Positions 3,001-33,000 are shown, counted from the first letter of the stretch. The stretch is 64,000 nt of DNA from Candidatus Omnitrophota bacterium (GCA_021735655.1 JAIPGM010000001.1:96001-160000), one strand, 5' to 3'. Numbers and translations: made by a program. The notes: generated from the letters alone by a model not told the origin.

Positions 3001-6000
3001 GTTGCAAGGCTATGTTATCGAAGTTGACCATGCTATCGTTGTTGGTGGAAAAGAGTTACGCCAGGTAAATGGTAAGGATCTTAAATATACCATTGAGGTT
3101 GATAGAAAAGGTAATTTTGAAATCGCCCGCGTACATATTGATCATGTTGAATTGGCAACTATTGTTAAGGATCCAGAAAGCGGTAATATAGCTGCTATTT
3201 TTAAACCGGAAACCGGTCTTGTCCCCGATGAGGCCATACTTAGGATTGCTCAATATATTGACATAAATGGTATTGATTCATTTAATGTATCGGATAGTGA
3301 AAAGCAGAAAATAATTGTTGTTGCTAACGATATTTTAGAAAGAGATCTAAGGGCAGTGCCGATTACCGATGGCGAAAGAGAGCTAGTATCTCAGTTGATT
3401 TCGCGAATAAGTTTTCAGGCTGATTTTGTGGCTAAAAAATACTATAAGCTTGGTCAATTGCATAAAATTGTACTTGCGGAAAAACCACGAACAATTAGCG
3501 ATATCATTGGTTCTGTTGGTAATGATCCGATAGCCCGCGCTAAGATTGATAATAGACTTAAGGTGATTAGCCAAGGTTTAGGCCGACAGATGCCACGCGG
3601 CGGAGTAGCAGCGTTGACTATTACCCCTAGTTTGGTTTTACAGCTCAATGGGAATATTATGCGTGAGTATCGTTTTAAAGAAGATCGTTTAGCCAGGCTA
3701 ATTGCTTTTGAACAAGGTCAGGAATTGGCAGTTAATGTAGCGTTTAATAACCGAGGTGATCCAGTTCAAACCTTTAAGCTTTCAAAAAGCGAGCATTCAG
3801 ACCGTCAGGTTGGCTCACAAGTAATTGCTTGGGGCCAAACTCCGATGGCCGAGCGTGATGGTGAAATTTCTGATGAAGCTGATAGCTCTGAAGCTAAAGT
3901 TATCTTTGAACAGGATATTCCGGAGACTGCTCGGGCATTTCAGGAATTTGCCGCTAGCTTGAAAGAGAAACATGGGGTAACGGTTACCGGAGATCTCTGG
4001 GAAGCGATGGGTAAAATGGGAATTGTTCCGTCAACCATGATTACTCGCAGCGTACTTTATGAATATCCGCATAGTGGTAATATTGGTTCAACCAGCTTTA
4101 CTTCACCGCTTATTGAAAATAACGGTAGGGTTGAGATTGATCCGCAATATCGTGATTCAACTAAACAGATTGAGATGCTTTTTGTGCCTAATGATCCGCA
4201 AGGCCGGACATTGGCAACTAGATTTATTACCGAAGAAGGGTATAACTGGGTTATTAATATGTGGGGGCTTAAGGGCACCGATGCCCCGTTAGGAGTTTTG
4301 CCGGCCAGCATAACTATTAAATATGAAAATGGTAAATATAGCGGTTATGAGTTTAGCCGCTTCAAGCAATCAATTAGCGGCGAAGAATTAAATGCTGAAT
4401 CAGGTTTGAATTTATATAGTGGCCTGCAGGCTTACGAATATGAAGTATTTAATTCCGCTGTTGTACGTAATGTAATTTATTCTTCACAGGCTCAACTTTT
4501 AGGCGAGCGTTATGCTTTTGTAACTGGCAGGCCGGCTAAGGAGATTTTAGGAACCTCAACTTTAAACAAACCAGCGGTTGAGACTTTGTTTTTTAATCCC
4601 AACTCATCTTTACGCAGCCCGGTCAGATCAGTGTTAACAGTTGAACAAGAGCTAGCTAATAAAATTATAATTCCTGAGATGATCGATGATCAACATTGGA
4701 TTACTCCGCCTGGCGAAACAGTGTTGATTCAAACCGATAAAGGCATTAAGCCGGCGGTTAGGGTTGTGGTTAAAGATCAATATAGCGTACGCTACGAAAT
4801 AGAAGAAGGTAAACAGATTACCTATATTGTTGCTTTAGAGAGTGAAGGTTCAGCAATCCATACTAGATTTTGGCAAGAGTCAAAATTCATCGGTGACAAA
4901 GCAATAACTAAATATCGCGTAAACATAACTGATGAGTGGAAGGCTGATTTAAAAGCTAGTGCAAAATATATAGCTTTTATGCCGCTTGTGCTTGCGGCAA
5001 TTGTGCTTTTAGGTTTTATTTTATCTAAGGTCGGCTTTACTCTAAGAAGGGCCTTGCAGCTTTTAGGATTAATCTTTGATGTCGTCATTAGACCGATACT
5101 TTTAATTCCTCATCTTTATAAAATATGGAAATACGGAAGCAGCAGTACCGGAGATTTCTTTAGACGTTGGCTTTGGCCGTTTGGCTTAAAGGAGTCTAAT
5201 CCTTATGTTCATGCTTATAAGGTTTGGCTAGCTATTAGCGGAAAAACCGACGAGAAATTTACTGAAGGCATTAACAACCCCGACACTACTGATACCACTG
5301 AAGCCGAGATTACTAAATTGTTTGAGGAGATGTATGAGTTCTCAGTTAAACTTAAAGACGCCCCTGATTTTGTATTGTATCTTGTTTGGAGAAAGAGGAT
5401 GGGGGCAACTGAAGCTGAAATGGAGGAGCATAAAGACATCTGGTTTGATATTATTGTAGCCAACCAGAACTTTACAAAAAAAAGCAAGGGTACAGTTACC
5501 ATGCAGCATCGTTTTCATTATGACGATCTTGGTAATTTGTTCAGAACCCGTAAGTTCATTGATCGTTATGAACAATACAGAGAAAGTGGAAATCTTGACC
5601 CTTACCGAAAGTATGTTGATTTATTAAACAGCGATCTTGGCGCTATCAACTTATCGCGCCGTCAGCTACTTGAAATAATCCACTATAGTGGCAGTTTAAT
5701 TAATTCATTAAAGTATAGGGGTCGACATTCTGAGTTTGGATTACCTAGCGAAGCAATACTTTGGAAAACATTTCGCACCCTTGACGGTGGACCTTCAGGA
5801 TTATTTGGTTGGTTGGGCATTGCTCGAATACTTTTCAGACAAGGCTCGATATTTGCTATAAGTTTCTTTGTATTCTTAGCTAAATACTTACCGTTAGCAA
5901 AAATTGTAGCCTTCCTTTTTAGTAATCCTTGGATTATCTTAGCTTTAATTGCTATTGCCCTTAGCTTAGGAATATATACTTATTTAAGAAGAAATTACGA

Positions 6001-9000
6001 CAAGGTAAGTCATATGGGTCCGGCCTCAAGAGCATTAGCTTATCCTTTTGTTTTAGTTGCTTCAATTGTTAGAAGCGTGTTGAATGCCTATACTTTAAGC
6101 ATAGCTGCCATATTTGCCGGTGGAGTATTAATGAATGATGCGGCAGCTTTCAGTGGTGTAACTGGGTTAGCTTCTTTTTCTGAGGCAGCTTTAGGTAGTT
6201 TAAAAGCAGTTTCCTTAAGTGATCCTTATGTATTAAGCTTTATATTGATGCTAGTTGCTTTGTTTGGGATATTTGGCTTTTTGGATAATATGATTTCAGT
6301 TAAATATAACCCAACCAAGAAAGAGTTCGGCTATGCACCTTTGAGAGACGCAAAGTGGTTTAGTGAAATTGTTTTTTCTGGTGGAATGATGTTGCTTACC
6401 TTTGGTATAAAATTTGTCCTAAACTACTTTACTTTTAAATTTGTAATGGTTCCAACTAGCAGTTATTTGGCGAGCTCTTATGCTCCGCCAGCTTGGGCTT
6501 TTAAAACATATTTGGCTATAATGGCTATTGTAATTGTTATTGTAATTACTGTAAAACTTGTTGCTTATATTAGAAAGCTTAATGCAGTTAGAAAGTCAGA
6601 TACGGGTAAAGTTATGGCAACAGTATGGAGTGATATCAAATCTTTAAAACTTGTTGCTTATGTTAGAAAGCTTAATGCAGTTAGAAAGTCGGATACGGGT
6701 TCAGTTATGGCAACAGTATGGAGTGATATCAGATCTTTAGGAAGAGGCGACATTGGCGATTGGATAGGATTTGCCTTTAAGTGGTTTAGTTTAATTGGCT
6801 TGCCTTTGTTGCTTTATTTCTATGGGCAAGTATTTTTAGTAATTGTCCTTTGGCTTCCTTTTGCTGCTTTTTATATACTGGATACTTTCTTTGTTTTCTA
6901 TATTTTAGAGGGTATAGCCGGATACTTGCGTGGCAGCTACCTTGGTTTAAACCGAATAAGGAATTGGCCGCAATTAGTGGCTAATTTTCCTCATTTAAAA
7001 CAGGCCATTAGGGCTAATTATGCTCATCGGGGAATTCGCAAGGCTGATGGGTCACGCCTAACTAAAGAAGAAAGAGACTCAATAGTTGAGGAGATTTGGA
7101 ATGGAATAATAGAGCATGTTTTTAAGGAGGATAGACTTTTCGAGGAAGAAAGGGATCGATATTCTTACACGGCTGATGGTGGTCCCAATCTCATAAAAGC
7201 ACCGGAAGAGGATGAGGCTTTCGATCGAATTATCTTTTTTGCAACTTCCATGTTCATGCATACACCGCGTATGCCCAAGACCTGGGCAGACTTACGTTCC
7301 CATGCTGTTGTTGATCCGGCTAATGATGAAGATGTCTTTTATAATTTTGAAGGGACAATTACTAGTTTAAATGAAGAAGCAAGGGTAGATCCTGACGATG
7401 ATTCTCTTCCCGGTGTACAGAAAACATTCTTGTGTTATGAGATTTATCTTTATTCTAACCAGTGGTTAAATTTTAAACGCCGAATGCAGGCCTCAGGAAA
7501 ATTCAGGAATACTGAAATTCAGGAGTTACAGAACATATACGATGCAGTTGTTAACGGAGACCTTACTTATAAATTAAAGTTAAAGGATGGAAGAAAGAGG
7601 CTAAGTAAAGCTTTGCAGGACGAAGTTCGTCTTTGGGCCTCTTATAGGTTCCAGCCGCTTATTCGAACTGTTCGGGGAATTGAATATCGTCGAGATGCTT
7701 TAAAGTTGATTGCTAATAGTGTTTATTTCAGGGGGCTTGGCTATACTGATGAGCAAATCAGAGAGGAAGTTAATAAGAAGTTTCGGTTTGTGCTTGGATA
7801 CCAAAGCTATGCTCGACAACAAGCGGATATGGTAAATCCAGAGAAGAAACTTTCAGAACGAATTGCAGCTAGATCTCGCGTAGAAGGCGTCAAAAAAATA
7901 ATGGAACTTTTCCCTGATATATTCGTTGCTAACTTAACTAAAGACGGAATATCAATTTGCATGCAAGGCGGCGAAGAAATAGGCAGCAAAAATGAGAAGG
8001 ATTTCTTTTGGTTAGGTCCTGAAGTTACTCAAGGTAAACCTGAACATCAAAAAGTTCTTTCAATCTGGGTTGATCACGACGGCGGTAATTATGATCATGT
8101 TGATACAGTGGATATGAACCAGGATGATTACTTTGAAGAAGCTTTAAAGCATCCGTTAGTCTTACAGGAGCATAGCCCTGATGTTGCTATTGTTGGTATT
8201 CCTGAGCATATTTTTACTGCTAGCTTTGGTAATGAGGGGAAACTGCTTGCCTTCTCTGATAGCACCTTTGCGAACATGGTTCAGAGGGTAATTGCTATGG
8301 GCGGTACACGTATGCATTATGGTCACCCGGATAGTTTCCGTAAACGATTTGCTAAACGTATGGGCTGGACAGCTTCTTCAAGCAAATTGAACGAAGATAT
8401 CTTTGCTGGATATCGGGCAATACGCTACGGTAAACGAATTAAGTTTATTGAATATCGCCGAGTCGGTAAGGCCCGTGAGGTTAAATTCGCGACTTCAGTA
8501 ATTTTATTTCAGAAATTCGGACGTGGTTCTGGTGAACAAGCTCATGATTTTATGTTATATGAACTTTATGAATGTCAGAACTTTGGTTTCACCAAAGGAA
8601 TGTTTTTCTTGATCAGCTCAATTGGTTTTTATATCAGGAAGCCGGCTGTTGTCTTAGCTGTCCAGGGTTACATCTTTACCTTAATCTTTATGGGTTTAAG
8701 TGGTTTTGTTTCTTTTCCTTTAGAAGCTTTTCTTGGAGTCTTGGGTGTTTTAGCTTCTCAGGGTATTGTGGCTACCGGTTGGTTTGAATTGATATTGCGC
8801 AAGGGCGTAATCCGAGGAACTTCTGATTTAATCGCGATGATGGCTACTGGAAATGTTCCTTTTTATATGGCTCATGTTTATACCAATGCTTTTGGGTTTT
8901 CTGAAGCTCAGGCCGGTATTGCTGGATACTTAGGAAGTGGTCGTGGACCGATGTTACATCATACTCCGATTTTCTATCCTAATTTTAAGTTAAGCTTATA

Positions 9001-12000
9001 TGGATTTTTAGAAGGAAAACAGCTTTCGAAAATGATGATTGTTAATATGGTATTTATTATAGCCGGTATAGTTATCTGGCAGAGTCCGCCGATTCTTTGG
9101 TCAGCCTTATTTATCTTGCTTCCTTTTGCGGCTTACTTTTATCCTAATATGTCTAACCCGGGAGCATTACCGATAGGCGTTACTGTCGGTAGATGGCTTG
9201 AGATATATAAATCTGATCTTTCTTTATGGCGCAAAACCATAGCTTCTGATAATCCTCTTTGGGAAGGTAAGAAATTAGACGTAGTGCTTCACGGAGCAAT
9301 ATTATTTCCTGTATTATTAATAGTCGGTGGTTTTATAGCTCTCTTTATTAAGTTACCGGTTACCGTAGGCCGTTGGTTAAATTCTCAATTTTCTGACCGA
9401 GGCCATGTAATCTCGACCTGGGCTATTAATTTGATTGGTGCGGTGTTTGGTGTGGTTTACTTAGCCAATATGTTGGTTGATAAATTACCTCAATTGGGCA
9501 ACATCATTGAAGCTTCACCGATGGCTGCGGCAATAGTTGCGGCTATAGTTATTGCTCGAGTCCTTCTTTACATTGGAAGTTACTTTTATAATTTGATCGC
9601 TGCCCGTTCTCATCAGGGAGTAAGTGAGGCAGTAGCGGCTTTAACTTTAGCTGGAATTATTCTTGCTGGGTTGAAGTGGGGTTTAGCGCTTAAGGCTTTA
9701 GTAGTTGGCTGGTTTAGCTGGTTACCAGCTTTGTTAGCTAGTCCGATTGGCCCTTGGGTTGCTGCAGTCTTATTGGTCCTTGCAGTCGCAGCAATTGTAA
9801 TTATTGCTTTACCGAGACGTATGCAAACTCATCCTACAGTACCGGCTTGGTTTGTTATTATGGGTGGTTTAGGTTTGCTACTAACAACATTAGGGGTACC
9901 AATAGTGATAAATACCCTTACTATATTTGCTGCGATTGCAGTGGGTTCGTTTGTTAATGGAATAGTTGCTCAGGATTTACCAAGAAAGGCTAAAGAGAAG
10001 AGATTAAAACGTAACCAAGCATTACCTTACCCGGCAACTATGCCAATAACTAATAAATTAGATCGTTCGCTTACTGAAAGTGAAAAAGAAAAAGTTATTT
10101 TAGCTTTTGGCGGAAGCGATGCCTTGGCAACTAATGGTATAGAGTTGAATGATCAAAATCTAGTAATGAGTCCGGCTCTTTCAGCTCCAGCTGAAGTAAG
10201 AGGCGGAGTTCTATATATAAATCCTAATACTTTAAGAGGTCCACCAGAACAGCTAAGAGTGATATTTGAAGGCCATGAATTAGCTCATTTTTTAGGAATG
10301 GATGAAATTCAAGCCAGACAATATACCATCGACTATCTTTTAGCGAATGGTTTACTTGAGAGCCACATTGCTTTCTTAGAGAATAATTCTATTGGTCTTG
10401 TAGCTGATCAGGAATGGTTAGAGGCTTTGAGCCAGAAATCAGTTTCTTTGGATAACGGAATTGAGCTTAAAGTTTATAAGTATAGGCCAGGAGTAAAAGT
10501 TGCTGTTGCTCAGATAGATCCGTCAATTTTACAGCCGCATATTTTAGTTTCCAGTGAGTTGGAAGGTAAGTTGCATTCGGTTGATCGTCGCTCTAACTAT
10601 GTATTGTATTATGATCATGAGACTGGCGAGCGTCTAGATAGCTTTCCTGAATCACGCCTAAAAGTATCTACGGTTACTAGTTTAATTGAAAGATTCCAGG
10701 ATCTTCATCCAGATTCACGAATAGAGATTATTACTGGTAACGAAAACCTTTTCTATAACAAGCCGATAGTTACAGTTATAGCCAATAAAGCTTACCATGC
10801 TGTCGGCGTTGACATAGAGAATCGTAATTATCCTATGCTTGTAATTTGGGCTGACGGTGCAGTAACTATCGAGGAAAGTGTTAGTTTCGAGTTTACTGAT
10901 TTTGATCAAAATGAAGTCAGAGTGTTGATTAATGGGAAAGAAGAAGATATACGCTATGCTACGGTTATCCAGTTAGTTTTAAATAAACAAGGTGTTGTTA
11001 ATCCGGGATCCCAGTTATATTTCTTTGATGATATCAAACATTTATTTGCGATGCCACGATTCAGCTCAGATGACTTTCCAGGAACTTTACCCAAGGGTTT
11101 GATGAGCGGAGCCATATTTTTTATGGCTGATCAACTTCTATCTGAAAATGCCCAGCGTGTAATCGACTATTACGATTCACAAAATCCAAAAACTGTTCAG
11201 GATTTTAATTTAACAAGCACCGTTTTTAGCAGAAGTGCCGATGGCCAAGATCGGGTAAGATTAATCAATATACCAGCAGAGTTATTAGAAGCTAGGTTGT
11301 TTGAAGCCGGATACTTACCTGATGACTATTCTATTGATCAAAGAAGAGGTGTAATTACTATAAAGCTTAGAGAAAATGTTTATCCTTTTCATATTATTGG
11401 AGTTACAAGTGATGGATTGGTGAAGGAGATAGTAGTTAATGGTAAATCTGGTAAGGTTGGTGTCACTGTAAGAGAAGCTGCCACTATTGCTCAAAAAGAG
11501 GGATTAATTAAGGCCGGAATAGTGGATCAAGGGATGACCGTTCGTTTAGATGTGGGTGATTTACGTTTTGGTAATGTTATAGTGGATAAACCTGGGCCTG
11601 AGAGGGCTAGTTCTTTAATCGTTTATACCCATATGCCTCTTGATAATGGTAAACAAAATAGACAATCGCCTCCCAGCGATGATAGATTAGGAGGAAGGGC
11701 TAGCCATAACGTGGCTGTGGCTGGTCCTGCTTCTAAGCCTTTGGATAATGGTCGACCAGGAAAGACCGAATGGAGCGATTTAATGAATCGCGTTGATCGG
11801 GTAAATGGCCTTAGGCAAGATGCACGAATAGCCGTAGTGCTTTATATAGTAGGAGTTGATCAAGAAATCGATGCCGGAACAAGAACAGCTCCTTTAACTG
11901 CCGGAGAACTACTGGTTAATGTTAATGGCGTAGGCCAGATAACTTCACGAAGAATTTTCCGAATAGTCGGTGAATTAAATCTTGCCGGAGTTACTTTAAC

Positions 12001-18000: not shown

Positions 18001-21000
18001 TATCGGAGATAACGAACTGATCAGAGGTTATCAGTTAATCAGAGATGGTGGCTTAAGATACAATGTAACCGAACCAGGAAGTTATACCTTAACTCAAGAT
18101 GGTTTAACTAAGAATCAAAGTCCTTTGGATAATGGTAAACAAACTTTAGACAATCAACGGACGTTCAGATCTAATAGAGCATGTATAACACCGACAATTA
18201 TCATTGCGGTGGCAGTGGCTTTATCATTTTTAGTTGGAGTAGAAAGATTTTTTACTTACTTTGCAATAGGAATATCCGCCCTAGCTGTGATTTTTAGTCT
18301 TTACTATTCAATTATTGAATTAATTTCTTTTATGAACAATCAGTCTTTTGATAGTAGAAGGCAAGGAGATAGGCAGGATGACCCTAGACGTGAAGAGCTC
18401 AAACGAAGATTAGAACAATCAGATACTGAGAATGATCGAAAAAGACCGTTAGATAACGGTAGAGAGAAGACCATCGTAGATTTATCCGTAAATTTAAAAC
18501 CCGGCCGTTATCATTACCCGGCCTACGCACCAACTGCTGATCAAGACGAACGTGAACCAGACGATGAAGAACGTGGAAGAATTATCGCACTTTTTGGCGG
18601 AAGAAATGTATTTGATCAAGCAGATTTGATTGTAAGAATTGCTCCGAGATTAGAATGGGTTGCTGAGGTTGACATTCTAAGAGAACAACCCAAGAAGTAT
18701 TTATTAATTAATCCTAATGTTATTCGGGGGCCACCGCAGTATGATTCACAACTTAAAATAATTTTTGAGCAGCATGAAGCATATCATTTAGATGGTGATG
18801 ATGAGAATGTCGCTACAAATAAAACTATTGAGTATTTAGTTTCAACTCCAACCGCAGTTAACCAACCAAGATTATTAATTAGCCATCTTCGTTTCCTTGA
18901 AAATAATTCTTTAGGCATAAGGCCGAAGCGAACATGGCGCAATCGCCTCGTTCGACGCATTGATGTGCAAGATTTACCAAGCACAAGACAGAGAACCGAT
19001 CAAGAAAAAAGATTGATTCAAGAAGTTATTGAACGAAACCAAAAGGCCCGGGAATTTTTGCAACCAGTTGAAATATCAGAAAGCATTGCGGTTGATCCGC
19101 TCTTAGCTGATGCGGTTTTGGCTAACTCACCTGAGGATTATCGCAACGCCATGCCAGCCGAAACTTTTTATTATGAAATGGTTGATATAACTATTTTACT
19201 TGATGAATTAGATGATGATGCCGAAGGAAAAGCCGTGTTTGTTTCTTTTGCTAATCAACATGGCTTGACTTATACCAAGGTTATTACCGTTAATCGGGAG
19301 TCTGCTGGAATTGTTCATAGGGTATCGGGAGTAATTAGCGATTTAGATGCTCATATCGGTGACACTATTCAATATCAGGGAAGTCAGAATGAAACTAAGT
19401 TTGCTCCGGCCGCCGGTAAGGAAATTTTTATTCATTGTGCTTGGGTTGGTTCAAGTTTAAACCCGGAACAAATTCCCCAAAACCAACTTAACGCAGTTAC
19501 GATTCCCGAAGATTTCAAGGCTACTAGTGAACAAAGAAGAGCTAAGCGACGCACTAATCGTCGTTTAGTGGTTAGTGCTCAAGGCAGATTTGACCGACAG
19601 AAGGAAATAGTTGACTTAGCTGAGTTACCGGAAGAGGTCAGGAACTCGATAGTTGAAAAATTAGAAGGCATGTTTACGATTTCTGGGGCAACCGATTCAA
19701 GGCGAATTGTAAGAATTGGCGAAATTGTTAAATATGACAATCAAGATCAGGGATACCCTTTGACTTATAAGGTTAGCTGTGTTGAAGGAGAAATAGCTAT
19801 CTTAACCCAAGCGGTTGAAGCAGTTTTAGCTAATCTAGAGATTGAAGTTGATGGTTTGGGAGGAATTTCCAAAGAAACTATTAGTGGATTAATTTTAGCG
19901 GCCTTAGAATTTGGTGTAGCTGAGGCAAGAGCAACTGAATTTGTGCCGATAGCCGGATTTTTAACTTGGGTTGAACAAATTTTAACTGCAGTTGATGCTT
20001 TAACCAACCAAAAAACTCACTCACGTTTAATTACTAGAATTGCTGAAAATACTGAGACATTACCGAGTACATACCGGGAAGCTGCAGTAGTAGCTTTAAG
20101 CGGTCATGATGATCCAGGCACTCTGTTTAAGAAAGTGCATTCGGCGGCAGTAGCTGTGTCGGGAAAGATTTATCTTAAAGAGGATTCTGAGCTAGCAAGA
20201 AAACAGAGTCTTGAGCCGCAAAACCCGACCGAACAAAGAGTTATAGAAGTCTTTACTAGTAGAATTGATGAATATGAGGCAGCTTTAGCTGATCCAAGCC
20301 TATCTGATGAGATGAAAAGTAAAATTTGTTCATTCCCGTTGGTGCTTTTACAGAGTTTAGGTCACACCTTAGCAATTATGCGTTTCTCTGATCCAGTTGT
20401 ATCGGCTCATGTAGCTGTTTTTAGAGGAACGCAATTTAGTGTAGTCGGCTTTGCTATTGATTCACGGGCTCAAAGGGCAATGTTTAATAAAGCTTTTCAT
20501 GAAGTATCAAAAATTACCACTGCAATAATTAGAGAAATTCAGTTTCCCGAGGCTGATTTAGCTGTTGTGCTTGAAGATGTTCCAGAACATGCACCGTTTA
20601 TCCTTATGTTAAGACATGATTTAAGTGATTTATCGCAATATCGCCAGTTACGTCAGAGCTATCCGAATCTGGTGGCAATTGTAGTTATTGAAACCGGAGT
20701 TTTGCATTATGGTATTGCAGCTCGAGCCGAAGGTTTTCCGGTTTTAGCTGAGGCTCACCTTGTTGTTGATGGACATAAGATCTCAGTTTGGGAAGCCGTG
20801 CCTGAGCGGGAAGCTGATGGTCAAAGAGTAAGAGCAATTGTTGATACTGAGGCCGGGATTCTAACAGTTCGTCCGGATAGCCAGACTGCCAATCAGGCTT
20901 TATCGGAGGAGATGGCCGAGGACGCCGTAGATGCTTATGTATTTTCTCGAAGAAGTAATCCAGTTATCTTAGCCGATGGCAGCACTGTCTTTTCAGTAGC

Positions 21001-30000: not shown

Positions 30001-33000
30001 GGCTGTTGCCTGTTGTGATGATATTAATCATCCGGCTGATTTAGGCGTTATTGACCTTGTGCCGATAACTCGGGTTTGCGGTAAAGATGCTAAAGGAAGA
30101 TCCATCAGTAAAGATGTAGATCAAATTATGAGTTTAACTGATCAGAAAGCAGCCGGAGTGATAATTTCCGATAATCAAGAAATTATGCCGGAAGAACCAT
30201 CAGCTGAGACTATTCGGAATAAAGATCCGCCGACTACCGTTAGCGCAGTTGCTGCAACTGCAATTTCAGCCTGGGCACATCGTCGGCCTTCAATTTTTGT
30301 TATTCGCGGGCAGGAAGCTGATGAAACAGTTAATCGATTAGCAGATCTTTTAGCTGCATCAACCAATTTAGGGGTTATCTATGTACGTCAAAGAACTGAA
30401 AATTCATATCTTGTTCTTTCGCGAAATACGTCTTTATCCTTAGGGGAGGTTCTTTCTAGCGCTCACCAGATAAAAGCAGCTGTTGGCCATCTCAATGTTG
30501 TTGTTTCACCATATTTTCAAATCAGAAAGAATGATCCAGTCATAGTTCAGTTAAGCCAAGTCAGAGAAAGGCTAACTGCTGAATTATCTGCCTTAGGTGA
30601 AGCTAAGGACAATCAAGCTAAGCGAGAAGGTATAATCAAGGCTCTTGCGCCTTATCGAGAGTTAGCCTTACGTTTAGCTAATGGCGATATTTCTGATTCA
30701 GCCTACTACGAATTTAATCCAGCCTTAAATGATCTTGGTCAGGTAGTTAAATTGATACTTTCCTTAGCTGTTCCTCAGGTCGAGAATCATACAGGGCCAT
30801 TGTCCGGCATGCGGCTGACTTCTTTAGGCCGGGCTTTAGATAGAGAAGAGAGAATCTTAACTTATAAACCGCTTGACAATGGCAAATCAAAAGAAGTTAT
30901 GACAGTTTCACACTTAGCTTATCCGACAAAGGCAGCTCTTATTCTTGAATTTGGTTTTTATCATGAAATAGAGCTTACTGCGGGGTACTTTTGCCTAGAG
31001 AATGAAGGTTTAGAAACAACTGTCGGTTTTAGAAGATGGTCTGAGCAACTAGAAGACTACTTAGAACAACCAAAACGTGGTCAGCAAGGAAATTTAGTCG
31101 CGATAATATTTGATGTTCCAATTGGATGGATTACAAATGGTGAGCGGATAGTATGGCATCAAGATGTAGGTTCGACTTTTTTAAGTTTGTCATCGGAAAC
31201 AAAAGTGGAAGCATTACCGCAGGAATTTTTAGATAGATTGGCCGCCGAAGATGTTGAGTGGTGGGGCAAGCAAGGTTTAGAAATGAATCTGGCCGATTTT
31301 TTTGCTTTGCATTATCGCAGGGGCACCTTAGGCCATGTGCCAGCTGAAAGTCTAAATCTTGAACAAACCATACAGCGAAATGTAGCACATTATGATGAAA
31401 GTTTTCTTGAAACATTAGTTGGCCAAAAGTTAACAGCGATGAGCCAATTGGCACCTCTCGATAATGGCATCAGAAAGTCTGGCCCTCGTTCGCATATCGG
31501 AACTTCAGGGAAAGTGACGAAAGTTCAACCAGTTGCCAAAGTTGGTGATCGTGATGCTGATCCTGAAGAACTAAAGAAAGAAACCAAAACCAAAAAAAGT
31601 GAGCCAAAAGCTATTGATTTTGGTCCAGCGGTAATTGTTGAGCTTTCTCAAGAAGCGCAAAGGTTGTTGGCTGAATCGAAAGATGGCCCAGACAATCCTG
31701 ACGGAAAATCTCAAGCCCCACTTGATAATGGCGTTAATGGTCTTGAGGTGATCAGCCAGGAAGAAGTGTTTTATAAAAATATTCACGAACATTTATCTCA
31801 ACGATCAGTGCCAGCTGATCAGATAGATTTTATTATTAAGGCAATGCGCTTAAATGCGCGCCATAATTTTGTTTCGCAATTAAGTAGACCGGCAACCTAT
31901 AATTCAAATTATCCGATATTTATCGGTAATTGCATGATGTCTCAAGGTACTGGTGTTGCCTATCAAGCCGCGCTGTTAAAACTTGAATATGGACAGTATG
32001 TGCTTGAGGTGGGAACCGGTTCAGGCTGGCAAACCGCCATATTAGCTACTTTAAGCTATGGCGGTAGTGTTTATTCAATCGAACAAGACCTCGAAGTAGC
32101 TAGGGTTGCTCAAAGTAATATTTCGGCGGCGAGGATTAGCAATATTTTCCTTATTCAAGCTGATGCAATGCAACCAATAGATGTATTAGCCGGTAAAAAA
32201 TTTGAACGAATCATTGTTTCCGGGGCATTACCACAAGGAATACCGGTCATATTGTTAGATTATCTCGACTTGTCAGGAATAATGATTGCTCCGATAAATC
32301 ACGGTAACTCTAGTGATAGTTTATGGAGGATTACCAAGGGGTATGACGGAACCATGGCTGCATCTAGAGTAGATAAAAATATGAGATTCCAGCGGATCAA
32401 TGTTGCAAGTAGTACCTCAGTAATTCCAGTTAATCAGGCTAAGAAATTACAAGATTTATCTATTGAGCAAGCTACAGAGCTTGGTGTTCTGTTGGCTGAT
32501 AGGAAAGCTCGAGCTCCGCTTGATAATGGAAAATCTTTATCGAGACGTAGCTTTGGTTTTATGGTGACCGCTTTGGGAGTGGGGTCATTTTTGACTGTTT
32601 GTTCTAAGTCCTCTGATTTGAAACCGGAAGGCAATCTCATTGGGACTGGACTCACAGTAGGATTAACTTTCGCTCCTGGATTAGGAAGAAATATTGGGGC
32701 ATATGAGGAGACAGTATGGACTGATCAGGATGTTGAATTTTTATGCCAAGAAGCGAAATTGATCAGAAAATTATGGAATGTTCCTTTTGTTTTATTCTCT
32801 GTTTATACTCCTCCGATTGCCGGTAGCAATTACGCTCAAAGTTATCGATGGATTAAGCAGATGCATGAAGCTGGAGTTCGTCTTTTGCCACATATCTCAA
32901 ACTATGATGGTCGCTATCTTCCTTCACCAATCGATATTAATGCTTGGGGTATTTCTGGTAGGGAAAAGAACCTATACAAAGATTTTATTAGGGGTTTGTA

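Follow-up and report, generated by a model that had tools for sequence, protein, structure and literature searches.

Giant genes and candidate in-line peptidases

The giant genes of Omnitrophota (20 to >400 kb) pose a recognised puzzle: their products may act as one working chain or be cut into separate products. Peptidase domains of families C39 and S8 have been proposed to process giant Omnitrophota proteins into smaller products, and the cleavage points were stated to be unknown (West-Roberts et al. 2023, bioRxiv 10.1101/2023.11.21.568195). In term searches of studies on these genes, the word “polyprotein” was not found (10.1101/2023.11.21.568195, a 2026 preprint, and PMC10066038); the first two also do not mention “HExxH”, and the 2026 preprint does not mention “linker”. 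The stretch of DNA analysed here, 64,000 nucleotides (nt) from a Candidatus Omnitrophota bacterium (GCA_021735655.1, JAIPGM010000001.1:96001-160000; hereafter “the window”), is part of a giant open reading frame (ORF) that encodes two domains with an HExxH motif. An original prediction, made from the nucleotide sequence, had taken these domains for embedded candidate cis-acting peptidases of a new family that would cut the encoded polyprotein at a recurring linker motif, PLDNG.

In their mode of action, the closest analogues of the domains would be the releasing peptidases that occur in-line in polymorphic toxins, and the cis-proteases of viruses. Zincin releasing peptidases, including the HExxH-containing PVC-metallopeptidase, are found in giant polymorphic toxins (Zhang et al. 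2012, PMC3482391), where an HExxH domain likewise lies inside very long bacterial proteins and has been proposed to release its neighbours by autoproteolysis (PMC3482391). However, the family in the window has no Pfam match to that family, occurs with several copies per protein, and appears restricted to giant ORFs of the Omnitrophota type, with metabolic and membrane enzymes as cargo instead of C-terminal toxins with immunity genes. Membership in the PVC-metallopeptidase family was rejected because no Pfam match to it was obtained among 34 members and the downstream neighbours are metabolic enzymes. Viral cis-proteases (alphavirus capsid protease, potyvirus P1/HC-Pro, pestivirus Npro) follow the same logic of a junction protease that makes one cut at its own boundary, and short conserved sites elsewhere in viral polyproteins can be cut in trans; by contrast, they are serine or cysteine proteases that cut at their own C-terminus and have no kinship in fold or sequence (BFVD search not significant). 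The C39 and S8 domains concern the same question in the same class of giant ORFs but belong to different peptidase clans and are located near the N-terminus (10.1101/2023.11.21.568195).

Two paralogous HExxH domains in one reading frame

Frame 2 of the plus strand is open from nt 2 to nt 64000 (21,333 codons without a stop) and runs off both ends of the window; the other five frames have 1,041-2,590 stops each, and a closed ORF of ≥150 amino acids (aa) is absent from both strands. HExxH occurs exactly twice in the encoded sequence, at the coordinates originally predicted (HELAH, aa 3425-3429, nt 10274-10288; HEAYH, aa 6258-6262, nt 18773-18787). About 0.47 chance occurrences are expected from the composition, so the motif count by itself proves nothing. 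A chance origin is ruled out by the existence of a domain family and by the paralogy of the two domains of ~140 aa, which share 37% identity over 146 columns (BLASTP, E 3e-25) and are each other's sole significant match across the whole ORF. The common strings quoted in the prediction, (Y/L)INPN..RGPP, IFE.HE..H, and SH(I/L).FLENNS(I/L)G, are present in both copies, and the span given for the pair (nt 10050-18950) was slightly too narrow on both sides (Table 1).

Both copies also fit the extended motif HExxHxxGxxE and carry an invariant His 26 or 33 residues past the second His, within SH(I/L)xFLENN. The original prediction had named HExxH with a conserved downstream His or Glu as the signature of zincin metallopeptidases. 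Copy 1 starts 19 aa past the last hydrophobic cluster of a glucan-synthase-like region, across a linker rich in Lys and Arg, and copy 2 is followed by a phosphoenolpyruvate (PEP)-utilising-enzyme module. Both are located downstream of basic linkers that follow transmembrane clusters and upstream of cytoplasmic-type enzymes, and no transmembrane segment was detected after either copy in a hydropathy scan.

Distribution and conservation of the family

The surrounding family had not been recognised in the original prediction, and indeed neither copy gave a match above threshold in Pfam or NCBIfam or any match among PDB sequences (phmmer); a Pfam scan of 34 family members likewise returned nothing above threshold. 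An exhaustive search of 1.84 billion representatives with a hidden Markov model of the two copies yielded 50 proteins (40 with E below 1e-10), nearly all of which are long multi-domain proteins or their fragments, some with two or three copies of the domain. In a genome scan with one genome per species, the domain was present at 31 loci, all in metagenome-assembled or single-amplified genomes labelled Omnitrophota, Planctomycetales/Planctomycetia, or just “bacterium”, and nearly all in frames that continue without a stop to the limits of the retrieved locus or contig (up to ~6,800 aa). The family, an unannotated representative of a known kind of enzyme, seems to occur only in giant ORFs that encode many enzymes in Omnitrophota-like bacteria.

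Copy 1 is typical of the family and shares up to 66% identity with copies in genomes that lack PLDNG. Copy 2 represents a divergent subtype, whose only close relative, an orthologue with 58% identity, is located on a 3-kb marine fragment (P0016/L032) and has retained HEAYHLDGDDE unchanged. Searches for homologous proteins with copy 2 alone or with the 1,313-aa region around it had no matches, although this fragment exists in the representative library, and metagenome scans for the copy-2 subtype and for the tandem PLDNGRVPLDNGK DNA pattern found nothing.

Among 72 unique full-length copies, the His, Glu, and second His of HExxH are conserved in 69, 68, and 68 cases, respectively. A downstream Glu is present in 68 copies and replaced by Asp in two more, and the further invariant His is found in 70. 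HExxHxxGxxE itself occurs in 33/72 copies, including both from the window, whereas ~28 others differ in the spacing between the second His and the first downstream Glu (mostly +8). The N-terminus of the domain is equally well conserved, with an aromatic residue ([Y/F]) in 71/72, Pro in 71/72, and Ala in 69/72 copies, whereas the ten residues upstream of [Y/F]PA show no conservation and are mostly small or polar.

Decayed copies occur in several relatives (L001, aa 2188-2245; P0029, aa 1369-1468; P0046, aa 259-363; P0047, aa 603-721). They are cut off after ~58 or 100 residues or have HExxH replaced by HELAR (P0029) or SELAH (P0047), which indicates a birth-and-death turnover of domain copies. 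The N-terminal-only remnants (L001, P0029, P0046) were considered as a sign that the YPA segment is an independent substrate, an idea that was dropped because a C-terminal-only remnant exists in P0047. P0003 carries two identical copies (aa 1377-1516 and 2217-2357) that flank a PEP-utilising-enzyme module and are identical also in the ten residues upstream (AGKDSSGN/YPANMP), which points to a recent duplication of junction and domain.

Predicted fold and zincin class

An AlphaFold model built from 34 aligned copies reached a predicted local distance difference test score (pLDDT) of 97.8 and a predicted template modelling score (pTM) of 0.91; a model from two sequences (pLDDT 59) was not used. 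The domain is predicted to open with the [Y/F]-P-A segment, followed by two short helices, a three-stranded sheet, and an active-site helix (model residues 73-88) with HExxH at its C-terminal end; a short Gly turn would then lead to a Glu, the probable third zinc ligand, and to helices bearing the invariant His. This modelled arrangement, an alpha/beta fold with a mixed sheet ahead of the active-site helix, is that of zincins, and its minimal form with three strands, active-site helix, and ligand helix corresponds to the scaffold of minigluzincins. For the third zinc ligand there are two conserved candidates, the Glu at +6 (68/72 copies) and the His at +26/+33 (70/72).

In fold, the model most resembles minigluzincins and the enzymes of families M48 and M56. 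Minigluzincins (proabylysin, projannalysin, selecase) are archaeal, soluble minimal zincins of ~105-110 aa, which share with the window domain the minimal size and the succession of three-stranded sheet, HExxH helix, and helix with the next ligand. Selecase is the only match of the family profile among PDB sequences, albeit a weak one (E 0.005, 19.8 bits), and aligns across the strands and HExxH; the family Glu at +6 in HExxHxxGxxE, the probable third ligand, stands opposite a His six residues after the selecase HExxH, which is presumably the third ligand of selecase. However, minigluzincins are stand-alone proteins, whereas the window domain is embedded in giant ORFs; identity is only 15-21%, the phyletic range differs, and minigluzincins lack the extra N-terminal subdomain of ~45 aa ([Y/F]PA...PDR...FGG) of the window family.

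The likeness to BlaR1/MecR1 (M56) and to M48 peptidases (HtpX, BepA, Ste24, Oma1) extends to the juxtamembrane place of the window copies, but the third ligand of M48 and M56 enzymes lies much further downstream. Most copies of the window family are not bracketed by transmembrane helices, and they have neither a sensor domain nor a Pfam match to M48 or M56. Membership in M48 or M56 was rejected (Pfam PF01435/PF05569; among 34 members, a single one matches M48, at E 0.12, and M56 is absent), as was the corresponding architecture, because the domain is not integrated between transmembrane helices. Assignment to the metzincins or Asp-zincins was also rejected; the register is that of HExxHxxGxxH/D in 33/72 copies, but the last residue there is Glu. 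Further structural likenesses comprise BepA, an M48 peptidase, deuterolysin, HtpX, Wss1, Ste24, Spartan, and lastly the nuclease YbeY. Foldseek searches of PDB and BFVD gave no significant match, so the structural relationships are distant. The domain is nevertheless very probably a catalytically competent minimal zincin, as predicted from its fold and residues, and its family is so far absent from Pfam and NCBIfam.

Proposed cleavage at the N-terminal boundary

The HExxH domain is proposed to process the polyprotein as an in-line peptidase, with the most likely cut at the N-terminal boundary of the domain itself, X↓[Y/F]PA, a reading to which a probability of about 0.45 can be given. The domain would bind zinc and act in cis: located immediately C-terminal to an enzyme or membrane module, it would accept the invariant aromatic residue in its S1′ pocket, and the cut would free the upstream module while the protease stays on the downstream module. 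In the window, one cut would part the membrane-embedded glucan-synthase-like region from copy 1, and the other would fall 18 aa past a PLDNG, before the PEP-utilising enzyme.

In zincins, specificity depends mainly on residues on the primed side of the cut, with a preference for a large hydrophobic residue at P1′. Cleavage at the domain's own N-terminus is favoured for this reason, because the domain opens with an invariant aromatic-Pro-Ala after an unconserved linker, and also because it abuts the C-terminal ends of modules and must have a role that is independent of PLDNG. The aromatic P1′ has a parallel in BlaR1, which autocleaves and cuts BlaI at Asn↓Phe, and minigluzincins, in which activity is blocked by the protein's own tail or through oligomerisation, provide a precedent for a terminus in the cleft.

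Several observations weigh against this proposal. The model confidently places the N-terminal segment within the fold, where its role may be structural alone. Avoidance of [YF]PA outside the domain starts was not found (ratio ~1.2). Outside ascertained locus centres, the domain occurs about once per 10-15 thousand residues, a density at which most junctions could not be processed in cis. Because the subjects were selected for carrying the domain, its enrichment at module ends lacks clean statistical significance.

To the puzzle of the giant Omnitrophota genes, the analysis contributes a conserved mini-protease domain, predicted to be catalytically intact and specific to giant ORFs of the Omnitrophota type, a sharply delimited candidate site of cleavage where the domain starts, and short junction motifs that are specific to lineages (PLDNG in the window). 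If the proposal is true, a bacterium would produce enzymes of glycolysis, gluconeogenesis, and glycogen metabolism in the form of a polyprotein; to our knowledge, this expression strategy has so far been tied to viruses and a few organellar systems. In that case, the domain could also find practical use as a compact sequence-specific protease.

PLDNG linkers and module junctions

Exact PLDNG occurs in 50 in-frame copies between aa 3879 and 20738 (nt 11636-62212), compared with 0.06 expected by chance, at a median spacing of 266 aa and mostly with Lys or Arg as the next residue. The third codon positions of the motif vary; it is therefore selected at the protein level, and an origin as nucleotide repeat was rejected. 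None of the 50 copies lies inside a recognised Pfam domain; they are often 4-50 residues away from a domain edge and bracket every recognised enzyme module. These modules are mostly cytoplasmic enzymes (HAD phosphatase, methyltransferases, PEP-utilising enzyme, two phosphofructokinases [PFK], protein-L-isoaspartate O-methyltransferase [PCMT], guanylate kinase, GlpX fructose-bisphosphatase, glycogen phosphorylase, radical SAM/B12, and L-PSP) and follow a 1,3-beta-glucan synthase region of eukaryotic type that contains many hydrophobic segments. The first 3,878 residues of the window are devoid of PLDNG. Punctuation by PLDNG was not found in related loci, and no mention of it in this sense was found in the literature searched.

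The original prediction had also noted a degenerate SLDNG right after copy 1, and the motif is in fact located at the C-terminal edge of that copy. Across the whole ORF, ~0.37 xLDNG would be expected by chance; SLDNG is probably a real degenerate linker, because the alignment with the relative L001 places it precisely where copy 1 gives way to the next module (module X). The statement that one copy sits immediately before the first linker holds for this degenerate motif, whereas the first canonical PLDNG follows only 396 aa further downstream. Of the central claim, the part that stands is the presence of predicted peptidase domains of a new family at junctions of a punctuated giant ORF; their connection with PLDNG is unsupported in the form in which it was stated. 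PLDNG cannot be the general substrate of the family, because its relatives (31 loci and ~50 proteins) are free of PLDNG and copy 1 closely resembles them.

The PLDNG-delimited modules of the window were aligned with homologues, all of which had been selected for carrying the domain, so the equivalence of junctions, although actually observed, is suggestive but not statistically secure. Module X ends with IVYTHM, followed by PLDNG, whereas its homologue in L001 ends with IVYTVKDKNLS, followed by YPASMP; here, a full HExxH domain starts 7 aa after the module end. Window modules that end at aa 9612 and aa 14341 align with one and the same junction in P0015, where a domain starts 15 aa past the module end; the module that ends at aa 13890 matches L011, with a domain immediately after; and the PFK module that ends at aa 18179 matches P0032, with a domain 6 aa after. 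Conversely, the module that starts at aa 12206 corresponds to a module of P0028 that starts 9 aa past the end of a domain. The remaining homologous junctions carry SSSP[V/I/L] or nothing.

The motif (S/A)SSP(V/I/L) is enriched 16-42-fold in L014, L026, P0022, P0047, and L008 (in L014, 8 observed versus 0.21 expected, located at aa 1105-5769 of the open frame) and appears to be a second punctuation mark specific to lineages. Short motifs are absent from sequences with several HExxH copies, and motif-rich sequences have at most one HExxH copy. It is suggestive, but no more, that the HExxH domain and the short motifs are alternative junction devices.

Several linkers of the window are embedded in duplicated stretches (aa 3834-3918 versus 4147-4234; 4227-4246 versus 5215-5234; 15598-15630 versus 16936-16974), with flanks such as GRASH(N/D)VAV(A/T)GPASKPLDNG and PLDNGKDV(E/S)RAEH and the tandem PLDNGRVPLDNGKP, which suggests that linkers spread along with short flanks. 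Each of the 50 linkers holds Asn-Gly, the dipeptide most prone to deamidation and isoaspartate formation. The same ORF encodes the PCMT module (E 7e-22, nt ~31826-32371, plus strand, aa 10609-10790), a link that may be coincidental or functional.

Alternative roles of the domain

Although PLDNG cannot be the substrate of the family in general, the two HExxH domains of the window might still cut the 50 linkers, mostly in trans, with copy 1 released by cuts at X↓YPA and SLDNG as a free enzyme of 141 aa. This is unlikely, but it retains some weight because PLDNG stands at homologous junctions (at least four with a full HExxH domain in relatives) and no other peptidase-like domain was detected with Pfam among the 21,333 residues. 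The motif interrupts none of the recognised modules that it brackets, SLDNG coincides exactly with the edge of copy 1, and the fewest HExxH copies are held by the sequences rich in short motifs (PLDNG in the window; SSSP[VIL] in L014, L026, P0022, and P0047), in keeping with the lack of such motifs in multi-copy sequences. Against trans cleavage speak the wide distribution of the family in giant ORFs without PLDNG, the orthodox sequence of copy 1, which shows no sign of altered specificity, the dissimilarity of PLDNG to the conserved [Y/F]PA edge, and the absence of PLDNG-bearing relatives from the scans made. Moreover, PLDNG may stay uncut and act as a turn or hinge, or it may process itself at Asn-Gly, and the ORF continues past both ends of the window, in a class of proteins for which C39 and S8 peptidase domains have been reported (10.1101/2023.11.21.568195). 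A broader scheme, in which the giant ORFs of Omnitrophota are bacterial polyproteins of central carbon metabolism and are processed like those of viruses, with cis cuts by mini-zincins at their own N-terminus in most lineages and with junctions reduced to short motifs in others (~50 PLDNG here, SSSP[V/I/L] elsewhere) that are cut in trans by a few retained copies, again with copy 1 freed between X↓YPA and SLDNG, is equally doubtful.

The juxtamembrane position of the window copies, which start 19 and 61 aa past transmembrane clusters, is reminiscent of quality-control or regulatory proteases such as HtpX, BepA, Oma1, or BlaR1. In such a role, the domain would degrade or clip mis-inserted or unassembled parts of the giant protein instead of releasing modules at defined sites. 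Across the family, a transmembrane segment is present within 100 aa upstream in 13/62 copies, an approximately two-fold increase over the background of 10.8%, but ~80% of the copies have none nearby. Such a role is decidedly unlikely, as it does not account for the invariance of the N-terminal edge or for the way in which the domain closely abuts soluble enzyme modules, and it is accompanied by no Pfam match to M48 or M56. Even lower is the probability that the zincin-like fold serves no protease role but acts as structural spacer, docking module, or hydrolase of a non-protein substrate (YbeY-like, RNA). The persistence of decayed copies without catalytic residues (HELAR in P0029, SELAH in P0047, the truncated copy in L001) and the lack of a significant peptidase match by Foldseek would fit this possibility, but ~95% of the 72 copies, from divergent genomes, have kept the full catalytic set, including the general-base Glu, which argues for catalysis. 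Giant Omnitrophota proteins have been associated with predation and the degradation of cell walls (10.1101/2023.11.21.568195; PMC10066038), and the domain could be a prey-directed effector protease that is exported with parts of the giant protein. This is very improbable: the neighbours are cytoplasmic enzymes of carbon metabolism (PEP-utilising enzyme, PFK, HAD, glycogen phosphorylase), the basic linkers that follow the transmembrane clusters point to the cytoplasmic side, and several copies per protein between unrelated enzymes are not toxin-like.

Positions and further features

Table 1. Features of the two HExxH domains and their surroundings, numbered from the first nucleotide of the window.
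Feature	Position (nt)	Residues (aa)	Strand	Support or remark
Hydrophobic (transmembrane) cluster, end of glucan-synthase-like region	8642..9973		+	Hydropathy scan
HExxH domain copy 1, orthodox family member	10028..10450	3343-3483	+	
YPATMP, N-terminal edge of copy 1, proposed primed side of X↓YPA cut	10028..10045		+	Conservation in 72 copies; putative role in cleavage
HELAHFLGMDE (HExxHxxGxxE), with two putative zinc-binding His, putative catalytic Glu, and probable third ligand Glu	10274..10306	3435 (third ligand)	+	Predicted from sequence
Invariant His in SHIAFLENN, candidate alternative ligand or transition-state residue	10364..10366	3455	+	His in 70/72 copies
Degenerate linker SLDNG, junction of copy 1 and next module	10445..10459		+	Homology to L001: next module starts within few residues
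Module X, weak NAGPA-like match (E 1.7e-4), ends with ...IVYTHM	10460..11635	3487-3878	+	51% identity to L001 aa 2227-2628
First canonical PLDNG	11636..11650		+	396 aa past SLDNG
Transmembrane segment(s), ending 61 aa before copy 2	18176..18334		+	Hydropathy scan
Canonical PLDNG, 18 aa upstream of copy 2	18446..18460		+	
HExxH domain copy 2, divergent subtype with HEAYHLDGDDE	18515..18967	6172-6322	+	PEP-utilizers_C (E 2.3e-21) downstream
HEAYHLDGDDE, HExxHxxGxxE motif of copy 2	18773..18805		+	Identical string in P0016

The region directly upstream of copy 1 is FKS-like (PF02364, E 1.8e-55; nt 7202-8695, plus strand, aa 2401-2898) and continues to nt ~9973. A second, more divergent HExxH family (...APPVV.TSDF...LYIHL...EGHExFH.EG..E..AR.KTIEYL) is present in related giant ORFs (L006, aa 755-846, 2313-2393, 4384-4454, and 5387-5461; P0044; also P0005, P0010, P0025, and P0029) and absent from the window.

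The GC content of the window is ~40%, and the GC skew on the coding strand is steadily positive (0.1-0.2). Several modules are internally paralogous at 24-29% identity (aa 9184-9630 versus 13870-14359, aa 9613-10108 versus 17448-17964, and aa 15648-16023 versus 20761-21129), the two PFK modules among them; the ORF has therefore grown in part by old internal duplications.

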